From: Clostridia bacterium
Lineage (GTDB): Bacteria > Bacillota > Clostridia > Christensenellales > DTU072
NCBI GenBank assembly: GCA_045535785.1
Contig: JAZSMH010000060.1
Coordinates: 2,560 to 66,559, forward strand
Reading direction: 5' to 3'
Length of the DNA stretch: 64,000 bases
Made by a program: the position numbers and the translations under genes. The notes under the pieces were generated by a model that made no database searches, had not been told where the DNA came from, and saw only the letters and a list, made by a program, of their open reading frames with translations. Positions 3,883 through 14,554 of this stretch are shown here, piece after piece; within the stretch, counting starts at the first letter, position 1, and the number at the start of each line of letters is the position of its first letter.

Positions 3883-4893
3883 TTACCAATTATGTACTAC
3901 AAACTCTTCTGCATTTTCACGTATTGCAGTATTATATCGTTGCACGGCATTATCTTTTATATGACTTATATAATAATGATTTTCATTAGTGGTATTTTTT
4001 CCTTGTGCTAATAATATTCTTGGAGTTATTGGAAGTAGCCCTACATGCGTGCCGTCTACGCGTTTATGAATAAAGGCAGGAGTATCGCTGGTAATGAACA
4101 ATGTTGGTCCGTCAGCAATTAAAAAATGAAAAGAGGTGTGCTTCAAATTTTTTAGTGCATTTTGAAAAATTATCCCTGTGTCATTTAAATACTGTCTATA
4201 GTATCGCAATAATAAGTTATGCCGCATTTCTTCTGCTGCCGTATCAAGAAAAGGCAATAGTCGTTCTTCTTCCGGAATCGATATTTCACTAAGAGGAATT
4301 ACATCATAACATAACCATGTTAGCAATTCTTCAAATTGAGCATTTGAATTGAATCCACGCCAATCCAATGCCGTAAAAAATTTCATAATATATTCGCGGT
4401 TAAATTCTGCAACCAAATTACCTGTTGCATTTAATATTTGTTCTTCGATAATTAATACTTGTTTGGACCATGCGTTTTCATACTTTTTCGACCAGTTTGC
4501 CTCAATATCTTTTATTTTTACTTTTTCAATCTCTCTACGAATGTTCTGTTTACTAACTAGAGAACCATCAGACCGTTTAATAATCCACTTATCAAAGTCA
4601 TAAAAATATTTGTTCATTTCTAGAGTATTTATAATACTATTACCTTCATATTCGACAGTGTACGATTTTAGACAAGCAAATATCAAATCTGTATCTGCTT
4701 GTGTGCAAAATGGCATCCCTGCTTTAATAGAGTGGAAATCTGTAATACCTGCAATTTTTTCTTTATTCCTTTCTTTGATAACTCCTGGTTCATTTATAAA
4801 CTCTACCTTAAGTGTACCGCTAGCGTTTGCCCATGATGACATATATGTTTGCGGAATTAGATGGTGATATTTTGCTTTGGTTTGATTTAACAT
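3883..4893 (-). CDS. DUF4238-like protein
   Basis: The N-terminus KAKYHHLIPQTYMSSW matches the HH-x-x-PQ-x-Y-hydrophobic signature I associate with DUF4238 (PF14022). The size (336 aa) is typical. There is a strong RBS (AGGAGAG), and the gene starts 44 nt downstream of the giant ORF. Confidence 0.65.
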   Translation of the reverse strand: MLNQTKAKYHHLIPQTYMSSWANASGTLKVEFINEPGVIKERNKEKIAGITDFHSIKAGMPFCTQADTDLIFACLKSYTVEYEGNSIINTLEMNKYFYDFDKWIIKRSDGSLVSKQNIRREIEKVKIKDIEANWSKKYENAWSKQVLIIEEQILNATGNLVAEFNREYIMKFFTALDWRGFNSNAQFEELLTWLCYDVIPLSEISIPEEERLLPFLDTAAEEMRHNLLLRYYRQYLNDTGIIFQNALKNLKHTSFHFLIADGPTLFITSDTPAFIHKRVDGTHVGLLPITPRILLAQGKNTTNENHYYISHIKDNAVQRYNTAIRENAEEFVVHNW

Positions 4894-4937: not shown

Positions 4938-7900
4938 CTATAAAATGTCATCGTTTATTAGTTTTTCTTCCTTATCCATTGCGGCTTCGTGCCTAGATGA
5001 ACTAGCCATCATTCTTAAAATATGCGCTGCCGCAGGATACATTATTTCACACGTTTTTGCTTCTTCCTCAAGTTTCAGCGCCCTTGCAATTTCTGGCGAG
5101 CCGTCGGTTACTGTTCTAACTCCACGATTGTTTTGGTAACCAATATACACTCCCTTGTTAACTTCTTCATCGTCAACTTCTTCTAACAAAATCTTTAATT
5201 CGCTAGGTATATATTCTTCTTTTGTGTGCTTAAATGAGTTGGCAAGAATTTCTCCAAGGTGTTGTTTTTTAGCCCTATCTTCCACAGAATCACTTGGGGC
5301 ATTTTCCATTATTGTAGATATGAAGTTTGAAACCTGCGCTTGGGTATAGTCTTTAGGAAGTCTCATTCTACCCATAATTTCATATTTTGTTTTAGCAGGA
5401 AGGCTTTTGTTTTCTCGACTAATAATAGCACAATATTCCTTAGGGTTTTCCAAAAAATATCTAAGAATTCCATTTGGTGTATCTCTTCTGTCAAAAAGTG
5501 GTAAGAAAGCAAATTCTAGGCGAATAATATCTTCAGCATAATACTTATCATCTAATTTGGATAAAATTTGTTCTATATAGTAATGCTTTGAAGGGTGAAA
5601 ATTATCTTTATTAATGTTATTCATTGTAGAAATAATTTCCGTTATATCCCAATCTTCTTCTTTCTGATGATATAATAGCCATTGAAAATATCCCGCGGGA
5701 TTGTATTTTTTTATCAATTGAATTTCTATATTATTTGCGTGATTATCCATATGCCTGTGTTCAAAAAACTTTTGTGTTAGGCTCTCATCTTCTAAGATTC
5801 TTGTAGGAATAAAATAATAATTTTGAATAAACGGAATTAGCTCAGTTAGAACTTCAATATCCAAACAATTAATGAAACCATTTTTTTCTTCTTCACCATC
5901 TTTTGCTATAAATGAAGCGAGTGTACAAAATTTTTTAAGGTTTATTAATTGACTCCTTACAAAAAGTTTATCTTCTTCAAGTATATTTGCATCTGCTAAA
6001 AAAGTGCCGTCTGCACCATTGCTGGGTAAAACTTGCAACATTTTATTCAAAACGTCTCTATGATTGAATTCGTTTAGCAGTTCTTGAAGTAGCTCGTTTT
6101 GAAATTTCCTAGTTGCACGTTCTTCCTTCTCGAAATCTTCATCAATTGTTTCTGGAATAGGGCAATCATTATACCCAAAACCTTTGAAGTAAATTAATGA
6201 AGCTTCTATCTTGTCTGTCGGTTTCAAATGTGCGATGACTTTCTCAATAATTTTAATGAATTGTTGAGAATCCTTTTTATGGTATTTTATAACATCATAT
6301 CTCTTTTTTAATAAATATTCGTATAAAGACGTCGCTTCTGAAGTGTTTGGTTGATAGGTTTCAACAATGTAATTTGTAATCTTCTCAAAGGTCTTGGGAG
6401 GTATTTGATGATAATTTTTAATAAGTGTTTTTAGTGTTTTTGTGTCAGAAAAAACAATTGTATTTATTGTTGCAATAATAACCCTATCAATAGCGTTAAA
6501 TAAAACTCCGTACGTTAAATCTTCATTTTTTAAGTCAGGGTCTCTCCATTTCAAAGTTGAATCGGTTAAACAAGCAGAAGTCTTAAATACTATTTTAATT
6601 GCGTAGGGAATAAACTTATTTCCATATTTTGCAATACTTTGCTCCATAAATAGTATCTTATCTTCAAAAGACATAGCGTTTTTATTATTATGCAACCACA
6701 AAATGTTTTCTAATGTTTCGCTAGGTGAGTTGGAAATTTTATAAGTAAATCCTTTTTGAATTAGTTTGAAAAGAATTTTACAAACTCTAATTTTATAATT
6801 GTCTATTCCGCTTAAAGATTCTAATGCCCATAAAAGAGTGCAATAATTATGCCCACCGCCGAAAAGGAAGTCTGCATCATTATTACTGAATAGTTCCCAA
6901 ATTAGACTAGTGTCTTTTTTAATTTCAGCCTCAATAAAGGATAAGAATCTTTCAGGAGAACTCTCTGCTAAAGTTTTCATATAATCCGAAATAGTAAATA
7001 TCATCTCTTTTGAAGATATTGATTTTAATATTTCGTCAATTACCGAATCAACCTCAAGTTGCATTTCGTTGTATATTGACAATAAAATGCAAGAATCTAA
7101 TAACCCTTCGATTAAATAACCACTGTATTGCCACACTTTATTATAAAGTTGATGGGCAAACTGCTTATCTCTTGGTAAGTCATATTTTGGATTAGGAGCG
7201 GAAAAAATAGTTTTAACACTTTCTAATAGTTTTTCTATTGTTTCGCTTGTTATGCTTTTAGAAATTGCACTCCACAATTCCTCTTTTAGGCTAACTTTAA
7301 TAAAGTCCCCGTAACTTAATAACGGACTATTGTCTATGTTTTCCCAACGGCTAATTTTACTGAGATATTGGTCCACCGTTTCTCCGTTCGGTAAAAAAAC
7401 GGATAAAGCATTTCTATCAGATTGACTTTTTTTGTTGATTTTTCCAACCATTAGTAATGGTATTAGTGATGGTAAGTCCTCTTTTGTTCGCCATAAATTC
7501 GACGAATGGCAAGTTTCATTTTCAAGTTCGCGAACGGTTAAAAAAACATTGTTTTTCGCTAAATGTGACAACTTTCTAAGCTGTGTAGTTGAAACACTCA
7601 TTTCATTTTTTAAAATGTCGGATAGCACGGATTGTGGTCTATGCCAAAGTTGGATGTCTATTTTATTATCGCTTATATCCTTACCATAAATAAATATAGT
7701 TGTATTTTTTGAATCGCTTAAATTATAGTTTGAAACATTGCTGTCTAATATCAATATTTTATCGCTAGTTAATGTATTAATCTTTTGCAAAGAAGCATAA
7801 TCTCGACAAATAACTGTTCTTAAATTGTTTTCATCCAAAGCAGTTTCTATCATTGCAGAAATTACAAAACCGTATGCTTCATAAAAAGAAGGTCCCGCAA

Positions 7901-8774
7901 CCTTAATAACCTTTTTGTCTTTAATACTTTCTATTAATGCTTCAACTTCTTTTTCTCTAGAAGCAGTAAAAATCTTGGTTGATAGTTGTGGGGTTGTTGC
8001 GTTTATTAGTTTTTTATGTGCTAAAGCAAGTGTATCAAGAGATAGTTCTTGTCCGCATATATTTTTGTACATCCAAACGCTTGTTGCAAGATTATGCGAT
8101 AGCCATTCTTCTAATTCAACTGACGTGTATACTCTTACTTCCTTCCAAGAACTACCTAAAATATTCTTTTTGATTTCTTCAATAGATTTTGTTTTAAGAG
8201 GTGCTGGCGTAACTAACACAAATGTGGTTTGTTTCTTTTGGTTAACACCGATTTGAGCGTCGCGCTTTTCAAAATCAGCGAGTATTTTAGTTTTAGAAGT
8301 TTTTACTGTTGCTCCTAACTCCCAAAAACTTTCACCTTCGGGAATATATAAAGATTTGGGAGAAACTACATTTAAGAATCCGTCAACACCATCTAAAGAG
8401 ATTTTATCACCTTGAGGAAAACGAAATTCTTTAGGAAAAGTAGTGAGACTTTCCTTTAAAAGTCGTCCAATTAATTCAGGAAACTTTCCTTGAGAATCCC
8501 TTTGATTATCAGCAAACCAATTTTCTATTTGAGTTGCCGTTATCAGTTTGTAGCCCAATTGATAGGGGTTGCTTTTGTAAAATTCAACACCGTTCTCTTT
8601 GCAAAAATCATATAATTTTTTTTCAGTACTAGCATGTGGCGTCGTCAATCCCTGCTCCCAACGATTAATTGTAGCAAAAGCAACGCCTAATTTTTTAGCC
8701 AATTCTTCTTGTGTAATACCTAATTCTTCTCGCACAAAGCGTATTTTTTCTGAAAATTCCATTTTTGTCCCCAT
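4938..8774 (-). CDS. Giant (1278 aa) protein: N-terminal XRE-type HTH, possible nuclease-like module, long uncharacterised mostly helical body
   Basis: The 3.8-kb ORF is uninterrupted. The HTH reads IRFVREELGITQEELAKKLGVAFATINRWEQG. No Walker A (G-x4-GK[ST]) is found anywhere. The likely true start is ATG at 8762 (MEFSEK), with a GGGGA RBS. Confidence 0.85.
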   Translation of the reverse strand: MGTKMEFSEKIRFVREELGITQEELAKKLGVAFATINRWEQGLTTPHASTEKKLYDFCKENGVEFYKSNPYQLGYKLITATQIENWFADNQRDSQGKFPELIGRLLKESLTTFPKEFRFPQGDKISLDGVDGFLNVVSPKSLYIPEGESFWELGATVKTSKTKILADFEKRDAQIGVNQKKQTTFVLVTPAPLKTKSIEEIKKNILGSSWKEVRVYTSVELEEWLSHNLATSVWMYKNICGQELSLDTLALAHKKLINATTPQLSTKIFTASREKEVEALIESIKDKKVIKVAGPSFYEAYGFVISAMIETALDENNLRTVICRDYASLQKINTLTSDKILILDSNVSNYNLSDSKNTTIFIYGKDISDNKIDIQLWHRPQSVLSDILKNEMSVSTTQLRKLSHLAKNNVFLTVRELENETCHSSNLWRTKEDLPSLIPLLMVGKINKKSQSDRNALSVFLPNGETVDQYLSKISRWENIDNSPLLSYGDFIKVSLKEELWSAISKSITSETIEKLLESVKTIFSAPNPKYDLPRDKQFAHQLYNKVWQYSGYLIEGLLDSCILLSIYNEMQLEVDSVIDEILKSISSKEMIFTISDYMKTLAESSPERFLSFIEAEIKKDTSLIWELFSNNDADFLFGGGHNYCTLLWALESLSGIDNYKIRVCKILFKLIQKGFTYKISNSPSETLENILWLHNNKNAMSFEDKILFMEQSIAKYGNKFIPYAIKIVFKTSACLTDSTLKWRDPDLKNEDLTYGVLFNAIDRVIIATINTIVFSDTKTLKTLIKNYHQIPPKTFEKITNYIVETYQPNTSEATSLYEYLLKKRYDVIKYHKKDSQQFIKIIEKVIAHLKPTDKIEASLIYFKGFGYNDCPIPETIDEDFEKEERATRKFQNELLQELLNEFNHRDVLNKMLQVLPSNGADGTFLADANILEEDKLFVRSQLINLKKFCTLASFIAKDGEEEKNGFINCLDIEVLTELIPFIQNYYFIPTRILEDESLTQKFFEHRHMDNHANNIEIQLIKKYNPAGYFQWLLYHQKEEDWDITEIISTMNNINKDNFHPSKHYYIEQILSKLDDKYYAEDIIRLEFAFLPLFDRRDTPNGILRYFLENPKEYCAIISRENKSLPAKTKYEIMGRMRLPKDYTQAQVSNFISTIMENAPSDSVEDRAKKQHLGEILANSFKHTKEEYIPSELKILLEEVDDEEVNKGVYIGYQNNRGVRTVTDGSPEIARALKLEEEAKTCEIMYPAAAHILRMMASSSRHEAAMDKEEKLINDDIL

Positions 8775-8797
8775 ATAACATTTATAACTTTTATAAC

Positions 8798-8826
8798 ATT
8801 ATACCTCAACATTTAAATTTTGTCAA
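8798..8826 (-). promoter_or_regulatory. Consensus sigma-70-type promoter for the giant HTH gene
   Basis: The minus strand reads TTGACA-17 nt-TATAAT. The leader contains three GTTATA repeats at 9-bp spacing. Confidence 0.65.
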
Positions 8827-8864
8827 TAATTTATGTCATTTATTAAAAACCACTACCTTTCCAC

Positions 8865-8893
8865 TTGACATTTAATTCTAATTATTGTACTAT
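8865..8893 (+). promoter_or_regulatory. Promoter for the methyltransferase operon
   Basis: TTGACA (8865-8870), 17-nt spacer, TACTAT (8888-8893). It is divergent from the giant-gene promoter. Confidence 0.55.
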
Positions 8894-8926
8894 ATAAACA
8901 CTTGGATGTTATAGGATGTGAAAAAT

Positions 8927-10873
8927 ATGAGATTTATTGGAAGCAAGACAAATTTACTGAACAACATAAAGCAAGTTATAGATGATAATTGCACTGACAA
9001 TAATGAAATCTTCTGTGATATTTTTTCTGGGACGGGAGCAGTATCGAGATTTTTTAAGCAAGATTATCAAATTATAAGTAATGACTTGCTATATTTCTCC
9101 CATATTTTAACTGCTGCAACTATTGAAAACAATACTATACCATCATTTGAAAAATTAAAAGCAAAAGGAATTTTAGACCCTTTTGCTTATTTAGAATCCA
9201 ACGACCTTCCTCTTTCTTTAGTAAACGGCTTTGTTACAGAAGAATATTCGCCTAAAGGAAGAGCAGGACGTATGTATATAACCGAAAACAATGCAGAAAG
9301 AATTGATTTTATTAGGACTACTATTGAAGAATGGAAAACTAAAAAATGGATAGATTCTTACGAGTATAAATATCTTTTAGCTTGTCTTATAGAAGGAGTA
9401 CCTTTCGTGTCTAACACCACAGGGACTTATGGTGCTTATTTAAAAAAGTGGGACAAACGTGCATTTAAGCGCTTTGAACTATTCAAATTAGCCGTTATTG
9501 ATAATAAGCGTAGAAATATTTGTTATAACGAAGATGCCAATGAATTAATAAAAAAAATTAGTGGCGATATTTTATATATTGACCCTCCTTACAACGATAG
9601 ACAATATCTTCCTAATTACCACGTTTTGGAAACCATTGCTAAATATGATTCGCCTTGCGTAAAAGGAGTAACAGGCGTTCGTCCATATACAAATGAAAAA
9701 TCAAGTTATTGTATAAAATCAAAGGTTAAGGAAGCTTTTGACGATTTAATCAAAAACGCCGATTTCAAACACATTGTTATAAGTTATAGCGACGATGGGC
9801 TACTCTCTGTAGAGGAAATAATTGAGATTTTAACTAAACACTGTATGCTTGATAGCATTAAAAAGTACGATATACCGTATGCTCGTTATAAAGGCAAATT
9901 AGAACAAGCAAAAAAAGAACATAACGAATATATATTCTACGCAAAGAAAGACATTATTCGTTCAAGTGTAGTCGAAAAGAAGGTTAAAGCGACTCGTAAA
10001 CCAACCGATAGCATAGACAAAAAACGCTTTATAAAAAGTCCTATGAATTATATAGGTGGTAAATACAAATTGTTGCCTCAATTAATGCCCCTTTTCCCAC
10101 AAAACATTAACACCTTTGTTGATTTGTTTGCAGGAGGATTTAATGTTGCCGTAAACGTTAAGTCAAACAAAACCATTTGCAATGATTTAAACTATCTTGT
10201 TGTTGAGATGGTAAGAACATTAGCCTATGCTGATATAGATATTGTTTTGAAACGTATTGATGAGAAAATTGCAGAATATGGGTTATCTAAAGAAAATGAA
10301 GAAGGGTTTAAGGCTTTTAGAAACTTTTATAATGCCAATCACAACCCAATTGATTTGCTAACACTATCTAGTTTTTCTTTTAATTATCAATTCCGTTTTA
10401 ACAGCAACTTAGAATATAATAATCCATTTGGAAGAAATCGAAGTCAATTTTCAGAAACTATGAGACAAAATTTAATTTTGTTTATGTCGGAAATGAAAAA
10501 GAAAAATTTGGAATTTTATTCGAGAGATTTTAGAGAAATATCTTTAGATGGATTATCAGATAATGACTTTATTTATTGCGACCCTCCGTATTTAATTACG
10601 AATGGCTCTTATAATGATGGAAATAGAGGTTTTCACGATTGGGGTACTGACGAAGAAAAAGCTCTTTACGAATACCTTGATGAGGCAAACAAGCGCAATA
10701 TTAAGTTCGCTCTTTCTAATGTTTTATTCCACAAAGGAATTGAAAATAAAATATTGATAGACTGGTCAAAAAAATATAAAATTCATTACATTAATAGCGA
10801 CTATTCAAATTGTAATTATCAATATAAAAATAAAGAAACAACGTCTGTTGAAGTATTAATCACTAATTATTAA
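8927..10873 (+). CDS. Fused double N6-adenine DNA methyltransferase (two Dam/D12-class domains; M.FokI-like architecture)
   Basis: Domain 1 has RFIGSK, FCDIFSGTG (motif I) and DPPY at 9581-9592. Domain 2 has YIGGKYKLL, FVDLFAGGF and DPPY at 10580-10591. The ORF track starts at GTG 8918; I prefer ATG 8927 (MRFIGSK). Confidence 0.85.
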   Translation: MRFIGSKTNLLNNIKQVIDDNCTDNNEIFCDIFSGTGAVSRFFKQDYQIISNDLLYFSHILTAATIENNTIPSFEKLKAKGILDPFAYLESNDLPLSLVNGFVTEEYSPKGRAGRMYITENNAERIDFIRTTIEEWKTKKWIDSYEYKYLLACLIEGVPFVSNTTGTYGAYLKKWDKRAFKRFELFKLAVIDNKRRNICYNEDANELIKKISGDILYIDPPYNDRQYLPNYHVLETIAKYDSPCVKGVTGVRPYTNEKSSYCIKSKVKEAFDDLIKNADFKHIVISYSDDGLLSVEEIIEILTKHCMLDSIKKYDIPYARYKGKLEQAKKEHNEYIFYAKKDIIRSSVVEKKVKATRKPTDSIDKKRFIKSPMNYIGGKYKLLPQLMPLFPQNINTFVDLFAGGFNVAVNVKSNKTICNDLNYLVVEMVRTLAYADIDIVLKRIDEKIAEYGLSKENEEGFKAFRNFYNANHNPIDLLTLSSFSFNYQFRFNSNLEYNNPFGRNRSQFSETMRQNLILFMSEMKKKNLEFYSRDFREISLDGLSDNDFIYCDPPYLITNGSYNDGNRGFHDWGTDEEKALYEYLDEANKRNIKFALSNVLFHKGIENKILIDWSKKYKIHYINSDYSNCNYQYKNKETTSVEVLITNY

Positions 10874-10880
10874 GGTATTT

Positions 10881-11858
10881 ATGGATAAAGAAATAAAAAC
10901 AATCCCTGCTAAAAACATTAAAAAAGAAGATATAGCAAGATTGCCTCTATGGGTACAAGAAAACCTTGACTCTGCCATTCTAATTGGTAGTTCTTATAGA
11001 ACAATCCAATTGTTAGATGGGAGAAAATATTCATTAGATAATGAAATAAATGATTTAGATGGCGCAGAATGGACAAAAAACATTTGCTCGGTTATTAATA
11101 CTCATTATTCAACCAAAGGGGAAGATAGCTTTGCTCACGACATCAGAAAGGTCCACCCAACCCCAAAACCTCCTCAACTAATGAGAGATTTAATAAAGTT
11201 TTTTACAAAAGAAAACGATATTGTATTTGATTATTTTATGGGTGTTGGTGGTTCCCTTCTCGGAGCAGCACTTTGTAATCGACGAGGTGCCGGAATTGAT
11301 TTAAATGAAAAATATGTCGATTCTTATAAAAAAGCAGCATCTAAGTTGAATTTACCTGTTTTCCCGTGCATAGTTGGAGATAGTAATGACATTTTAGATA
11401 ATGACTCCAAAGTTACTAGCTTATTGAATAATGAAAAAGCAAGTTTAATACTTATAGACCCACCGTACGCTAATATGATGTCAAAACCTAAAACAGGTGC
11501 CGATATTGCAGTATATGGGAATATTGCAACCCCTTTTACTGATTTCGATAATGATATAGGTAATTGTAGCTACCATGAATTCCTAAATAAGCTGAAAAAC
11601 ATTGTATCAAAATCATTGCAATATCTTAAGAATAAAGGGTATCTAATAGTTTTTTGTAAGGACATGCAACCCAAAAAGAAAGAACCTCATTTGTTGCATT
11701 CAGACATAGTAAATGCGTTAAACGAGATTCCTTCGTTATATTTTCGTGGATTAAAAATTTGGGCAGACCAAACGGTCAAATTATTCCCTTATGGTTATCC
11801 ATTTGATTTTGTTTCAAATCAAATTCATCAATATATTTTAATTTTTAGAAAATACTAG
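10881..11858 (+). CDS. Third DNA methyltransferase (N6A/N4C type, DPPY)
   Basis: Contains HPTPKP, FDYFMGVGGS (AdoMet motif I) and LILIDPPYANM (DPPY at 11457-11468). It starts 7 nt after the fused methyltransferase stop. Confidence 0.75.
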   Translation: MDKEIKTIPAKNIKKEDIARLPLWVQENLDSAILIGSSYRTIQLLDGRKYSLDNEINDLDGAEWTKNICSVINTHYSTKGEDSFAHDIRKVHPTPKPPQLMRDLIKFFTKENDIVFDYFMGVGGSLLGAALCNRRGAGIDLNEKYVDSYKKAASKLNLPVFPCIVGDSNDILDNDSKVTSLLNNEKASLILIDPPYANMMSKPKTGADIAVYGNIATPFTDFDNDIGNCSYHEFLNKLKNIVSKSLQYLKNKGYLIVFCKDMQPKKKEPHLLHSDIVNALNEIPSLYFRGLKIWADQTVKLFPYGYPFDFVSNQIHQYILIFRKY

Positions 11859-13237
11859 TCTATTCCGATGTTCTTAAAAGCATCTTTTACCGCCTGTGGC
11901 GCAGCATCGTTGATTATAACTTTTCCTTGATTATTACAATATATTAGAACCGATTCATGTGGAAGAGTTGTTCCTTCTCCACCAAATAAAGTAATCCATC
12001 TAGTTATTGTATAACCAGGGTAACTAGGTTTAATATGCTCATTTTCTATCGCATCATACCCTCTAATATCATGCAATCCTTCAGCGAGTTTATTGTACAT
12101 TTTACCTTCTACAAGATAAATTTCTCTAGTTGAATCATTACGTAATACCACGTCGGGTAAAAGAAGATTATCTTCTCCACCAGCATCTTTTTTATGGAGT
12201 GTGGTAAAACTTCCGTTTGCTTCTCTAAAATAACTTCTTTCGCAACCTGCGTGATTTTCATAGATACCATGTATTCCCGCATATTGACAAGTCAAGTGCA
12301 ATAAGATAGATGCTACTTTTTCGGAAGACATGGCATATTGCCAATAATGTTCAGGAAGTTCAATATTAGCAGGCAATGTAATCCCATCTAACTGTACATT
12401 TAAAATTTTACAAATTCTGATGAATTTATTTCCACTGTTCCTTGATGCATACGATTGAGAAACCCCATGTTGTGTAATAATTATTTTTCCTGCCCAACCA
12501 AGTTTCCTCAAAGTGCTTGCTATACAAGTTAAAGTTCCTATATTAGGGTCGTGTCCAATATTTCCTTTATCTTTTGGTTTGGAAAGCATACCTGAAACAG
12601 TTATAGTTTCATCACTTAACTTGTTTATCAATATAGGAGTATTTGTTTTATTTGGTAACCGCATATTCCCCTTAAACTCTATCATTTCGTCAACGGAAGT
12701 AAAAGCGCAAAATGGGGTCATAGTCTTGCCTAAGAATCTAACGTCTTGAGCTAAAAGCATATTTGTACCAAATATGTTTGTTTGGGTCGGTGTTCTGTCA
12801 CTATCAGGCGTTGCTTCTTCATTATACAACATATACTTTGGCGTATCTGGACAATAATAGTTTGCATACGTAAACTTAGAGGCTCTCTGACCAATACCTG
12901 TATTTCTTGATTCAGCATCACTTGTTTTAGTTTCTTCCAATAAAAATACTATATTGTTTAGCGAGTGATTTGCAGGAACTTCTTCTTGTTCTACAAGCAT
13001 ATAGTCCATAAAGCTTGAATAACCACTAATAATTTTTATATTTATTTCTGAGATGTTACCAATATTTGCGCTTTCAACCACATACTCAAACGAGAACAAA
13101 CCGTGTTGTGTTTTAGGTTTGATTTTAATATCACCACAAGTCAAAGTTTCATTTTTTAATTTGCAGTATTCTTGAAGAATTGTTAACACTACCGAATTTT
13201 TAGGGCGTTCCTCTGTAAGAATCCATAAGTTGTTCAT
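11855..13237 (-). CDS. Putative restriction endonuclease of the R-M module
   Basis: Convergent with the third methyltransferase, overlapping it by 4 bp. It has a C-terminal PD-x14-E-G-K motif (LLLPDVVLRNDSTREIYLVEGK, nt 12101-12157). It shows no similarity to the FokI nuclease that I can see. Confidence 0.55.
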   Translation of the reverse strand: MNNLWILTEERPKNSVVLTILQEYCKLKNETLTCGDIKIKPKTQHGLFSFEYVVESANIGNISEINIKIISGYSSFMDYMLVEQEEVPANHSLNNIVFLLEETKTSDAESRNTGIGQRASKFTYANYYCPDTPKYMLYNEEATPDSDRTPTQTNIFGTNMLLAQDVRFLGKTMTPFCAFTSVDEMIEFKGNMRLPNKTNTPILINKLSDETITVSGMLSKPKDKGNIGHDPNIGTLTCIASTLRKLGWAGKIIITQHGVSQSYASRNSGNKFIRICKILNVQLDGITLPANIELPEHYWQYAMSSEKVASILLHLTCQYAGIHGIYENHAGCERSYFREANGSFTTLHKKDAGGEDNLLLPDVVLRNDSTREIYLVEGKMYNKLAEGLHDIRGYDAIENEHIKPSYPGYTITRWITLFGGEGTTLPHESVLIYCNNQGKVIINDAAPQAVKDAFKNIGID

Positions 13238-13507
13238 AAAAATTTTTCTCCCGTATAATAACTGAGCTTATATTATAACATGTTTTCGGTAAAATATCAA
13301 TTCATTTACTCAGTTCATAGCTAAACAGCCTAAAAGTGGGTTTCCCACTTGTTTTAGAGTCGAAATTGCAATTTGGTGCAATTTCCTTAACCTGCTTAGG
13401 CGTTGAAATCTGCATCATTTTTTCGGGAAAAACGCACCGCTAAAAATCTTCTAAAAAGTTTATAAATATGACACACTTTGTCATCTTTACTTTGGTATAA
13501 TAGGACT

Positions 13508-14554
13508 ATGGATAAATTAGCATATCACTACAACAAGAAAAAACTACCCGCTAAAACTGAGGGTAAATATCTATACTATTATCCTTGCGATGATATTGAA
13601 AACGCCACCGTTCAAATGGGTGGGCGTGGTTTTGTCACGATTGAAGTAAGCGAGAAAGAATGGGAAGCGTTAATTGAGTTAGATAGGATTGAGTATAATA
13701 ACGAGCATAAATACGTACGCCATACTGCTGAACTTCTCGATGAAGAAGATGAAACTTTAACTGCAAAGCAACTAGAAAACTTCCACGTTAAGGATACCCC
13801 TATAGATACAAAAGTGGCAAACTATTACTACAAAAAAGACCTATATAACCAACTTACCGAAGATGAAGAAAAAGTTCTTAAAATGCTTGAAAACGGCGCT
13901 ACTCAAAAAAATATAGCTAAAGCATTAAACGTTACACAAGGCTACGTTTCAATGATTAAAGCCAAAGCACAATACAACTACGATTATGCAGAACAAACTA
14001 CAGCTATAAAAACTAATTGTCCCGAATACCTTTGGAAGTGTTGGAACTTGTTTGCTAAAAAGTTAGAAATGCCGATGTTCTTAGACGTAGAAATGGAATA
14101 TGTATTAAGACATCTCCATCCTAACGATATAGCCCACTTCCTTTATTGGTATTATAGTTTGGGCGAATTTGTCCGTTTTTCTATTAGATACTATCTATAT
14201 AACGAGGAAGCGCTTGAAAAAGAAAAGTCGGAGTATCTATCTAAGGCAAGCGACCAAGAGCTTGCTTGGTATTTACAAAACTATGCCGATGCAGTTCCTT
14301 TGGTACAAATCGTATATATCCGTTTAATTACCGAAGTTGAATGTCGTAGAGAACGTGGATTGCACGGTAATAATAAAGCGGCAGACGGCTTATATACCGC
14401 TGTGGAGAAGCTTGCAAAGCGTGTAAATATATCACCCGAAGAATATTACGAAAAGCGTATTTATCCTATCATAGTTAATATTCGTACTAGACGAATAAAG
14501 CAGTTTTACCGCTTCTATTCAGGCAAGACACTAAAAAAATTAAATTATTTTTAA
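13508..14554 (+). CDS. HTH protein with sigma-70 region-4/LuxR-like motif (mobile-element regulator)
   Basis: The motif is LTEDEEKVLKMLENGATQKNIAKALNVTQGYVSMIK. ATG 13508 lies 6 nt after an extended -10 (TGGTATAAT); the track start TTG 13478 lies upstream of that promoter. Confidence 0.6.
   Translation: MDKLAYHYNKKKLPAKTEGKYLYYYPCDDIENATVQMGGRGFVTIEVSEKEWEALIELDRIEYNNEHKYVRHTAELLDEEDETLTAKQLENFHVKDTPIDTKVANYYYKKDLYNQLTEDEEKVLKMLENGATQKNIAKALNVTQGYVSMIKAKAQYNYDYAEQTTAIKTNCPEYLWKCWNLFAKKLEMPMFLDVEMEYVLRHLHPNDIAHFLYWYYSLGEFVRFSIRYYLYNEEALEKEKSEYLSKASDQELAWYLQNYADAVPLVQIVYIRLITEVECRRERGLHGNNKAADGLYTAVEKLAKRVNISPEEYYEKRIYPIIVNIRTRRIKQFYRFYSGKTLKKLNYF

Follow-up and report, generated by a model that had tools for sequence, protein, structure and literature searches.

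Two separate candidate self-control elements between a giant helix-turn-helix gene and a putative BtsCI-like restriction-modification module

The stretch of Clostridia bacterium DNA analysed here (64,000 nucleotides, hereafter the window, from a genome of 2.16 Mb and 39.4% G+C) carries, diverging from a short intergenic region, a giant gene whose product begins with a helix-turn-helix (HTH) domain and a restriction-modification (R-M) module with two methylase genes (Table 1). An earlier note on this DNA had proposed that a motif repeated in both leaders allows one DNA-binding protein to co-regulate the two operons, with the HTH of the giant protein as the candidate, in a role analogous to that of R-M controller (C) proteins. 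Our analysis does not uphold a common regulator, as the repeats before the giant gene and a pair of GGATG sequences before the methylase gene each travel with their own gene. It favours instead, with a probability that we put at roughly 0.6, two separate self-control elements, each specific to one gene: an operator of the giant gene and the GGATG pair of the methylase gene.

Table 1. Features of the intergenic region and of the genes on either side (positions in the window).
Feature	Position	Strand	Description or basis
Intergenic region	8763-8926		164 bp, between the divergent giant gene (-) and 648-aa methylase gene (+)
Giant gene	4938..8762	-	1274 aa from the conserved start; N-terminal HTH_3 (XRE-type), remainder uncharacterised
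Shine-Dalgarno GGGGA and start codon ATG of the giant gene	8772-8768 and 8762-8760	-	Sequence; starts of homologues
Three tandem 9-bp units	8771..8797	-	GTTATAAAA 8797-8789, GTTATAAAT 8788-8780, GTTATATGG 8779-8771
-10 TATAAT, giant promoter	8803-8798	-	17-nt spacer from the -35
-35 TTGACA, giant promoter	8826-8821	-	Promoter match 12/12
Methylase promoter	8865..8893	+	TTGACA (8865-8870)-17-TACTAT (8888-8893); promoter match 10/12
GGATGTTATAGGATG, two direct GGATG, 10 bp start to start	8904..8918	+	Initial transcribed region, about +5 to +19
Double-domain D12 (Dam-like) N6-adenine methylase	8927..10873	+	648 aa; Pfam, PADLOC
Second methylase, N6_N4_Mtase family	10881..11858	+	325 aa; Pfam, neighbours in relatives
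460-aa open reading frame, probable BtsCI-like Type IIS nuclease	11855..13237	-	Convergent with the methylases; motif, size, partners
Promoter of the 460-aa open reading frame	13272..13300	-	TTGATA-17-TATAAT, extended -10 (ATGTTATAAT)

The giant open reading frame (ORF), in full 1278 amino acids (aa; 4938-8774, minus strand), most likely starts at the ATG given in Table 1 (MEFSEK...) and not at the in-frame ATG at 8774, since all homologues begin with MEF or MNF at the former and the latter is not conserved. Pfam places its HTH_3 domain (PF01381) at residues 11-50 (E=2.8e-12), and AlphaFold2 models the HTH with a predicted local distance difference test score (pLDDT) of 79-88 over residues 1-60. 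On the other side, the 648-aa methylase matches MethyltransfD12 of Pfam in two stretches, the architecture of the FokI and BtsCI methylases, and the PADLOC model MTase_II over its full length (E=2e-260). Invariant DPPY motifs occupy residues 219-222 and 552-555, as befits a fused methylase with two D12 domains, and the protein is 45-59% identical to methylases encoded beside true FokI-type nucleases. In this architecture, in its size and in the neighbours of its homologues it resembles the methylases of the FokI, StsI, BtsCI and BstF5I systems; the window differs from these systems in its additional N6_N4-family methylase, in the convergent orientation of its nuclease gene and in a specificity that we infer.

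The 460-aa ORF shows no match in Pfam, NCBIfam or PDB and none of the FokI domains. It contains PD-X15-E-X-K at residues 361-379, its homologues lie beside methylase homologues in many loci, and the 325-aa methylase co-occurs with it and with the 648-aa methylase in L002, L004, L222 and L223. M.BtsCI, M.FokI and M.StsI are two-domain methylases, 48-62% identical to one another, that all modify GGATG/CATCC, and the nucleases of the BtsCI type, which are not related to FokI, have homologues of 463-472 aa with a C-terminal PD-Xn-EXK (PMC2831314). By size, motif and methylase partners the 460-aa ORF is like the BtsCI homologues of that description. This likeness, the PD-X15-EXK motif and the identity of the methylase to those beside FokI nucleases suggest that the R-M module of the window would be a BtsCI-like GGATG system, with GGATG as the presumed target of the 648-aa methylase. 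The plus-strand R-M operon described in the earlier note holds for the two methylases, whereas the likely nuclease gene is convergent with them and has its own promoter. This promoter is conserved in L002 and L004 and has no GGATG nearby, so that the nuclease gene seems to have no obvious control element.

The divergent promoters of the intergenic region stand where they had been placed (8798-8826, minus strand; 8865-8893, plus strand), and their architecture is kept in relatives. Both have near-consensus hexamers, a spacer within the 16-18 nt typical of sigma-70/sigma-A promoters and a gene start downstream, and their positions predict transcription starts at about 8791 for the giant gene and about 8900 for the methylase gene. 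TTGAC of the giant -35 is invariant (7/7 lineages), and the methylase promoter recurs as TTGACG-17-TATTAT in L002 and as TTGACA-17-TATACT in L004. The perfect giant promoter is less striking, since exact TTGACA-N17-TATAAT is found at 52 sites in the genome against about one expected from composition; the organism simply uses consensus promoters. The two promoters lie back to back without overlapping, their -35 boxes 38 bp apart in the window and further apart in relatives, and among the relatives compared nothing is conserved in the sequence between them.

The octamer that had been seen as the shared motif, ATGTTATA, is indeed present once in the methylase leader (8906-8913, plus strand), and the giant leader has three GTTATA at exact 9-bp spacing (plus-strand TATAAC at 8774, 8783 and 8792), with the extended form TATAACAT at 8774 and 8792 (plus strand). 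Counting across the whole genome, a check that the earlier note had proposed, reveals enrichment here and not background frequency: ATGTTATA has 79 copies on both strands of the genome, 3 of them in 153 bp of intergenic DNA where about 0.006 would be expected, and nowhere else in the genome do two copies lie within 200 bp of each other. A fourth copy nearby (13281-13274) is the extended -10 (ATGnTATAAT) of the promoter of the 460-aa ORF, where relatives read ATGATATAAT or ATGCTATAAT, n being T, A or C. Genome-wide, 37 of the 79 copies continue as a -10-like sequence, 15 of them reading ATGTTATAAT. With its variable middle base at the nuclease promoter and so many -10-like copies, the octamer was rejected as a general operator word.

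In the sense direction the giant leader reads TATAAT-GTTATAAAA-GTTATAAAT-GTTATATGG-GGACAAAA-ATG. The three units, each built on a TTATAA or TTATAT core with the general form RTTATAWWW, stretch from the -10 box to the ribosome-binding site, or from about -6 to +21 of the predicted transcript, and RTTATA-N3-RTTATA-N3-RTTATA has its single genomic occurrence at this leader. A search at the protein level turned up 21 homologues of the giant protein, and DNA was fetched for lineages at 98, 74, 60, 52, 44 and 43% protein identity. All fetched lineages that bear the HTH (at least 43% identity) have the same three units in the same register between TTGAC(A) and the ribosome-binding site. Over a 25-nt aligned core the repeat block is about 90% identical between pairs of six lineages (43-98% protein identity), and the flanking non-coding DNA of these six (the promoter spacer, the DNA upstream of the -35 and that between repeats and ATG) is 36-40% identical. 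The extra TATAAT is absent from L008 and L010, where the first repeat is itself the -10, 17 nt from TTGACA, and the repeats therefore overlap the core promoter.

Within each fetched locus, pairs of repeat units are found only upstream of the giant gene, bar one weak chance match. Among the seven lineages with the motif, the HTH core TQEELAKKLGV-A(F/Y)AT(I/V)NRWEQG shows little or no variation, and all seven share an invariant recognition helix, A(F/Y)AT(I/V)NRWEQG; the HTH-less homologue in L012 lacks the repeat motif too. The repeats are retained in L008, L009 and L010, which have no methylase adjacent (a tRNA gene lies upstream in L008), while the genes downstream of the giant gene vary from locus to locus and the upstream neighbours also differ (L002, L004, L008, L009, L010). 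By these comparisons the minimal co-travelling unit would be the promoter, the repeats and the giant gene. Because the repeats are conserved, occur only upstream of the giant gene and accompany an invariant recognition helix, the giant HTH is the obvious candidate to bind the repeats of its own leader; this part of the earlier proposal survives, and the C-protein-like control of the R-M module does not. A gene that encodes an HTH_3 domain and travels with a conserved site, made of repeats, that overlaps its own promoter has the features of an autoregulated HTH gene, and on balance the triple repeat is probably the giant protein's own autoregulatory operator.

From the position of the site, the giant XRE-type HTH is predicted to repress its own transcription from the triple repeat, either by occluding the open complex or by blocking promoter escape. 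As TTATAA is self-complementary, adjacent units could form TTATAA-N3-TTATAA dyads usable by an HTH dimer. RNA folding was rejected as a leader element on both sides, the minimum free energies (-0.8 and -4.5 kcal/mol) being no better than those of shuffled sequences. A scan of viral contigs for the repeats was uninformative, with more than 119 matches in AT-rich giant-virus and phage contigs, and no relatives of the giant gene were found in viral contigs. In L011, which encodes a 23%-identical giant homologue, the gene is divergent from AbiEi/AbiEii with two GTCATAT-N-ATATGAC palindromes between them (L011:5889-6010); we did not count these palindromes as covariation of HTH and operator, as the AbiEi/AbiEii antitoxin could own the sites.

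The repeats could also be -10-like hexamers acting on RNA polymerase, through sigma-dependent pausing or alternative starts, or an A/U-rich leader that enhances translation. Each unit does contain a TATAAA or TATATG hexamer, the first unit takes the place of the -10 in L008 and L010, and the -10-like continuation of many genomic copies of the octamer fits the same idea. The conservation, however, covers positions outside the hexamers (R at position 1, AAT after unit 2) and the exact 9-bp register, neither unit 2 nor unit 3 is paired with a -35, unit 2 is without the TG of an extended -10, and the element co-occurs with an HTH of invariant recognition helix, all of which makes an action on RNA polymerase or on translation unlikely.

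The operator that we favour has parallels among known regulators. Like the C proteins and C-nuclease fusions (PvuII family; CR.NsoJS138I, PMC3850674), the giant protein has an N-terminal XRE-type HTH and a conserved site in its own promoter region, a combination that suggests autogenous control of the giant gene. Unlike in C proteins, the fused partner is an uncharacterised protein of 1200 aa that is also found without an R-M module; the site consists of three direct 9-bp units and not of paired palindromic C-boxes, and its position downstream of the -10 predicts repression only; and there is no sign that it controls the nuclease or methylase genes. The C.Kpn2I roadblock (PMC6237814) likewise has the regulator's site downstream of the promoter of its own gene, but that one lies within the coding sequence and works by stalling elongation, whereas here, in the leader from -10 to +21, occlusion of initiation or of promoter escape would be equally likely.

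The conserved feature of the methylase leader is of a different nature. GGATGTTATAGGATG is composed of GGATG, TTATA and GGATG, with the octamer inside it, and GGATG-N5-GGATG has a single occurrence in the genome. We gathered 80 metagenomic loci with genes for relatives of the 648-aa methylase and typed the neighbouring genes by tblastn; 24 of them have adequate upstream sequence and a methylase followed by a FokI-type nuclease. In 23 of these 24, GGATG-N5-GGATG lies at most 60 nt from the methylase start, and the remaining one (L054) has an N6 spacer. The pair-bearing leaders have about 16 different spacers (TTTTG, TTATA, TAAAG, TTTTA, TTTCG and others). Across 643 kb, 33 GGATG pairs were observed against 0.5 expected by chance, 30 in leaders and 3 elsewhere, and two of the latter may be methylase leaders with incompletely aligned starts. 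Most of the loci surveyed are metagenomic contigs, and relatives among them are not statistically independent.

The pair extends beyond this set. A whole-genome search yielded G380, where a methylase 58% identical to that of the window is preceded by GGATGTTTCGGGATG and the neighbouring nuclease has all four FokI Pfam domains; the giant gene is absent from G380 and from all 24 loci linked to a FokI nuclease. The pair also stands ahead of the methylase start on plasmids of Lactobacillus helveticus, Weissella confusa and Lactococcus sp., all three of which have a nuclease annotated as FokI-type, and it is present in a plasmid of Psychrobacter sp., a Gammaproteobacterium, where the downstream gene is annotated as a hypothetical protein. 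Across phyla it keeps its 10-bp register and same-strand orientation. It is absent from distant BtsCI-like systems with split FokI-type methylases (L090, L097 and L045). At those loci a 60-aa ORF, ribbon-helix-helix-like or AbrB-like, ends at or overlaps the methylase start (L090:4813-5004, L097:496-678, L045:4813-4995), a candidate alternative controller which suggests that control modules have been swapped in this methylase family.

The closest relatives of the window's methylase outside the giant-linked island are in L222, L223 and L224 (77, 73 and 71% identity). L222 and L223 carry both methylases and the 460-aa ORF, L224 one methylase and the 460-aa ORF; the leaders of all three are exactly GGATGTTATAGGATG, and none of their upstream neighbours is related to the giant gene. 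In L019 (68% identity) the leader reads GGATGTCATAGGATG, again in an R-M module without the giant gene, and GGATGTTATAGGATG recurs in L025, L029 and L031, which like L222-L224 have no giant gene within 5 kb. Since L222, L223 and L224 have exactly GGATGTTATAGGATG without the giant gene, the TTATA spacer, and hence ATGTTATA, appears to belong to the R-M subfamily and not to be a consequence of the giant gene.

The methylase genes of CfrBI, AhdI and LlaDII are regulated by methylation of their own site in the promoter (PMC12707154), and recognition motifs in the promoter have been called a common means of methylase self-regulation (PMC12898733). The window has in common with CfrBI, AhdI and LlaDII a presumed own recognition sequence in the promoter or leader of the methylase gene, its conservation with the methylase family (23/24 loci, four plasmids and three close relatives) and a module without a C-protein gene. 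It differs from all three in having two direct copies one helical turn apart and just past the predicted start instead of within the -35 or -10, in a convergent nuclease gene with its own promoter, so that only the methylases would be affected, and in N6-methyladenine (m6A) at an asymmetric Type IIS site; it differs from CfrBI, moreover, in that the promoters neither overlap nor compete. By this analogy the GGATG pair is most likely a self-site feedback element for the methylase gene. Two copies of its own target about one helical turn apart would give the methylase feedback on its expression, which could be strong while incoming DNA is still unmethylated and reduced after the GGATG sites have been methylated or occupied, as for CfrBI, AhdI and LlaDII. 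The literature that we searched contains no description of methylase autoregulation in the FokI/StsI family or of paired GGATG in leaders.

To our knowledge, no experiment has addressed such self-site control in the FokI/BtsCI methylase family, and the pair might have other functions. It could be a ribosome-binding sequence, or a favoured place for methylation or cleavage, for example a two-site substrate through which the nuclease would attack unmethylated copies of the methylase gene first. The second GGATG is 3-7 nt away from the start codon in roughly half of the loci, and FokI-type nucleases work best on two sites. Many loci, on the other hand, have the pair 10-23 nt from the start and a separate GGAG or GAGG Shine-Dalgarno sequence downstream of it, and the first GGATG cannot serve as a Shine-Dalgarno sequence at all. 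The strict register and orientation across phyla, and the presence of the pair in systems with the BtsCI type of nuclease, which has no relation to FokI, also speak against such functions, and we regard them as quite unlikely to account for the pair.

The same comparisons bear on the proposal that the giant HTH binds ATGTTATA/GTTATA in both leaders and co-regulates both genes, much as a C protein joined to a large effector would. This proposal has attractive aspects: an octamer that is rare in the genome has three copies within 140 bp, it abuts the ribosome-binding site in both leaders, the TTATA spacer is kept in all giant-linked loci, and C-nuclease fusions are known (PMC3850674). Yet GGATGTTATAGGATG is equally present where no giant gene is near, the constant of the methylase family is the GGATG pair with its many different spacers, the giant gene keeps its repeats without a methylase nearby, and the methylase leader has only one GTTATA, with no partner 9 bp away, next to unconserved inter-promoter DNA. 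Motif conservation in homologous loci is found for the repeats before the giant gene, while the methylase octamer turns out to be one spacer variant of the GGATG pair. Neither gene behaves as a C protein and its target would: each is found without the other (the R-M module in L222, L223, L224 and L019, the giant gene in L008, L009 and L010), and in place of palindromic C-boxes with a matching site at the methylase promoter there are three direct 9-bp units and a single GTTATA. In the window, L001, L002/L003 and L004-L007 giant gene and R-M module lie side by side in divergent orientation, and these loci share the whole arrangement, including a sigma-region-4 gene beyond the nuclease; this adjacency is explained by descent and hence is no evidence of co-regulation. 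Common control by the giant HTH is therefore very unlikely. The sharing of ATGTTATA would be a coincidence of a TTATA spacer with a GTTATA repeat and no sign of a common operator, and the octamer of the methylase leader is, with high confidence, independent of the giant HTH.

That the repeats are bound by some other factor, such as a host nucleoid or xenogeneic-silencing protein with a preference for AT-rich DNA or another island-encoded regulator, is comparably improbable: the repeat block is very AT-rich and the island encodes further DNA-binding proteins, a Sigma70_r4 protein (13478-14554) and a recombinase, but the giant gene is the only constant companion of the motif (the neighbours differ in L002, L004, L008, L009 and L010), and 90% sequence-specific conservation would not be expected for a composition-driven binder.

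Several points weigh against the two-element interpretation. On the side of the giant gene, a 9-bp period falls short of a helical turn, XRE-type dimers seldom use direct repeats, and the dyad interpretation hinges on the palindromic TTATAA core. For questions of linkage, the giant-linked loci listed above, the window included, are versions of one mobile island and count as one lineage. The two leaders have 21 nt in common at 76% similarity and in sense orientation, a likeness that also speaks for common control and makes weak cross-binding possible. On the side of the methylase, the GGATG specificity rests on homology and on the conserved sites themselves, and the second GGATG, where it lies close to the start codon, could double as a Shine-Dalgarno sequence, so that part of the conservation could be translational. 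Finally, GGATG is only mildly depleted in the genome (observed/expected 0.81, rank 53 of 1024 pentamers), and its avoidance was not taken as decisive for the specificity.

Both elements belong to known regulatory kinds, an autoregulated HTH fusion and methylase self-site control, and their recognition separates a tempting account of a shared operator into two circuits. The 27-bp candidate operator offers a handle for expressing and studying a mobile-island family of HTH-fused proteins of about 1270 aa. The paired GGATG stands in the leaders of nearly all the FokI-family methylase genes examined, in different phyla and beside nucleases of both the FokI and the BtsCI type, in one of the enzyme families most used in biotechnology. 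Should the pair prove functional, Type IIS systems would gain a clear example of self-site feedback, and a repeated leader pentamer could predict methylase specificity from sequence alone. A more ambitious version, which we hold tentatively and at slightly less than even odds, is that the pair is a family-wide epigenetic self-sensor, from Bacillota to Gammaproteobacteria, by which the two-domain methylase senses how far its own gene is methylated and adjusts its expression during establishment in a new host, and that it lies here beside an independently autoregulated, HTH-fused, defence-like giant gene whose HTH might weakly cross-talk with the GTTATA of the methylase leader.

Some further observations concern the neighbourhood. 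AlphaFold2, run on the first 420 residues of the giant protein, modelled residues 220-420 (window 7503-8102) confidently, as it did the HTH, and residues 62-214 poorly. The best Foldseek matches of residues 220-420 are weak (E>1e-3) and AAA+/STAND-like (Rif2, RFC subunits, CED-4, Avs4), and the Walker-A-like position reads VAGPSFYEAYG, without GK[ST]. The region may be a degenerate nucleoside triphosphatase module; with matches at E>1e-3 only, no functional call was made. For the DUF4238 gene downstream of the giant gene (window 3883-4893), no homologue was detected in any fetched relative, the 98%-identical L001 included, which makes a fixed operon of the two genes doubtful; L001 carries ORFs of 191 and 360 aa in that place. 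Several pentamers are far more depleted in the genome than GGATG by a maximal-order Markov model (observed/expected 0.28 for GACCC/GGGTC, 0.43 for GAGAC/GTCTC and 0.46 for GCCGC/GCGGC), and may be a trace of restriction systems, past or present, that target them. In L223 the R-M module lies among SIR2_2 (a faint match), Hypoth_Ymh and GmrSD genes (L223:2995-4900 and 9475-11550), a setting that resembles a typical defence island.

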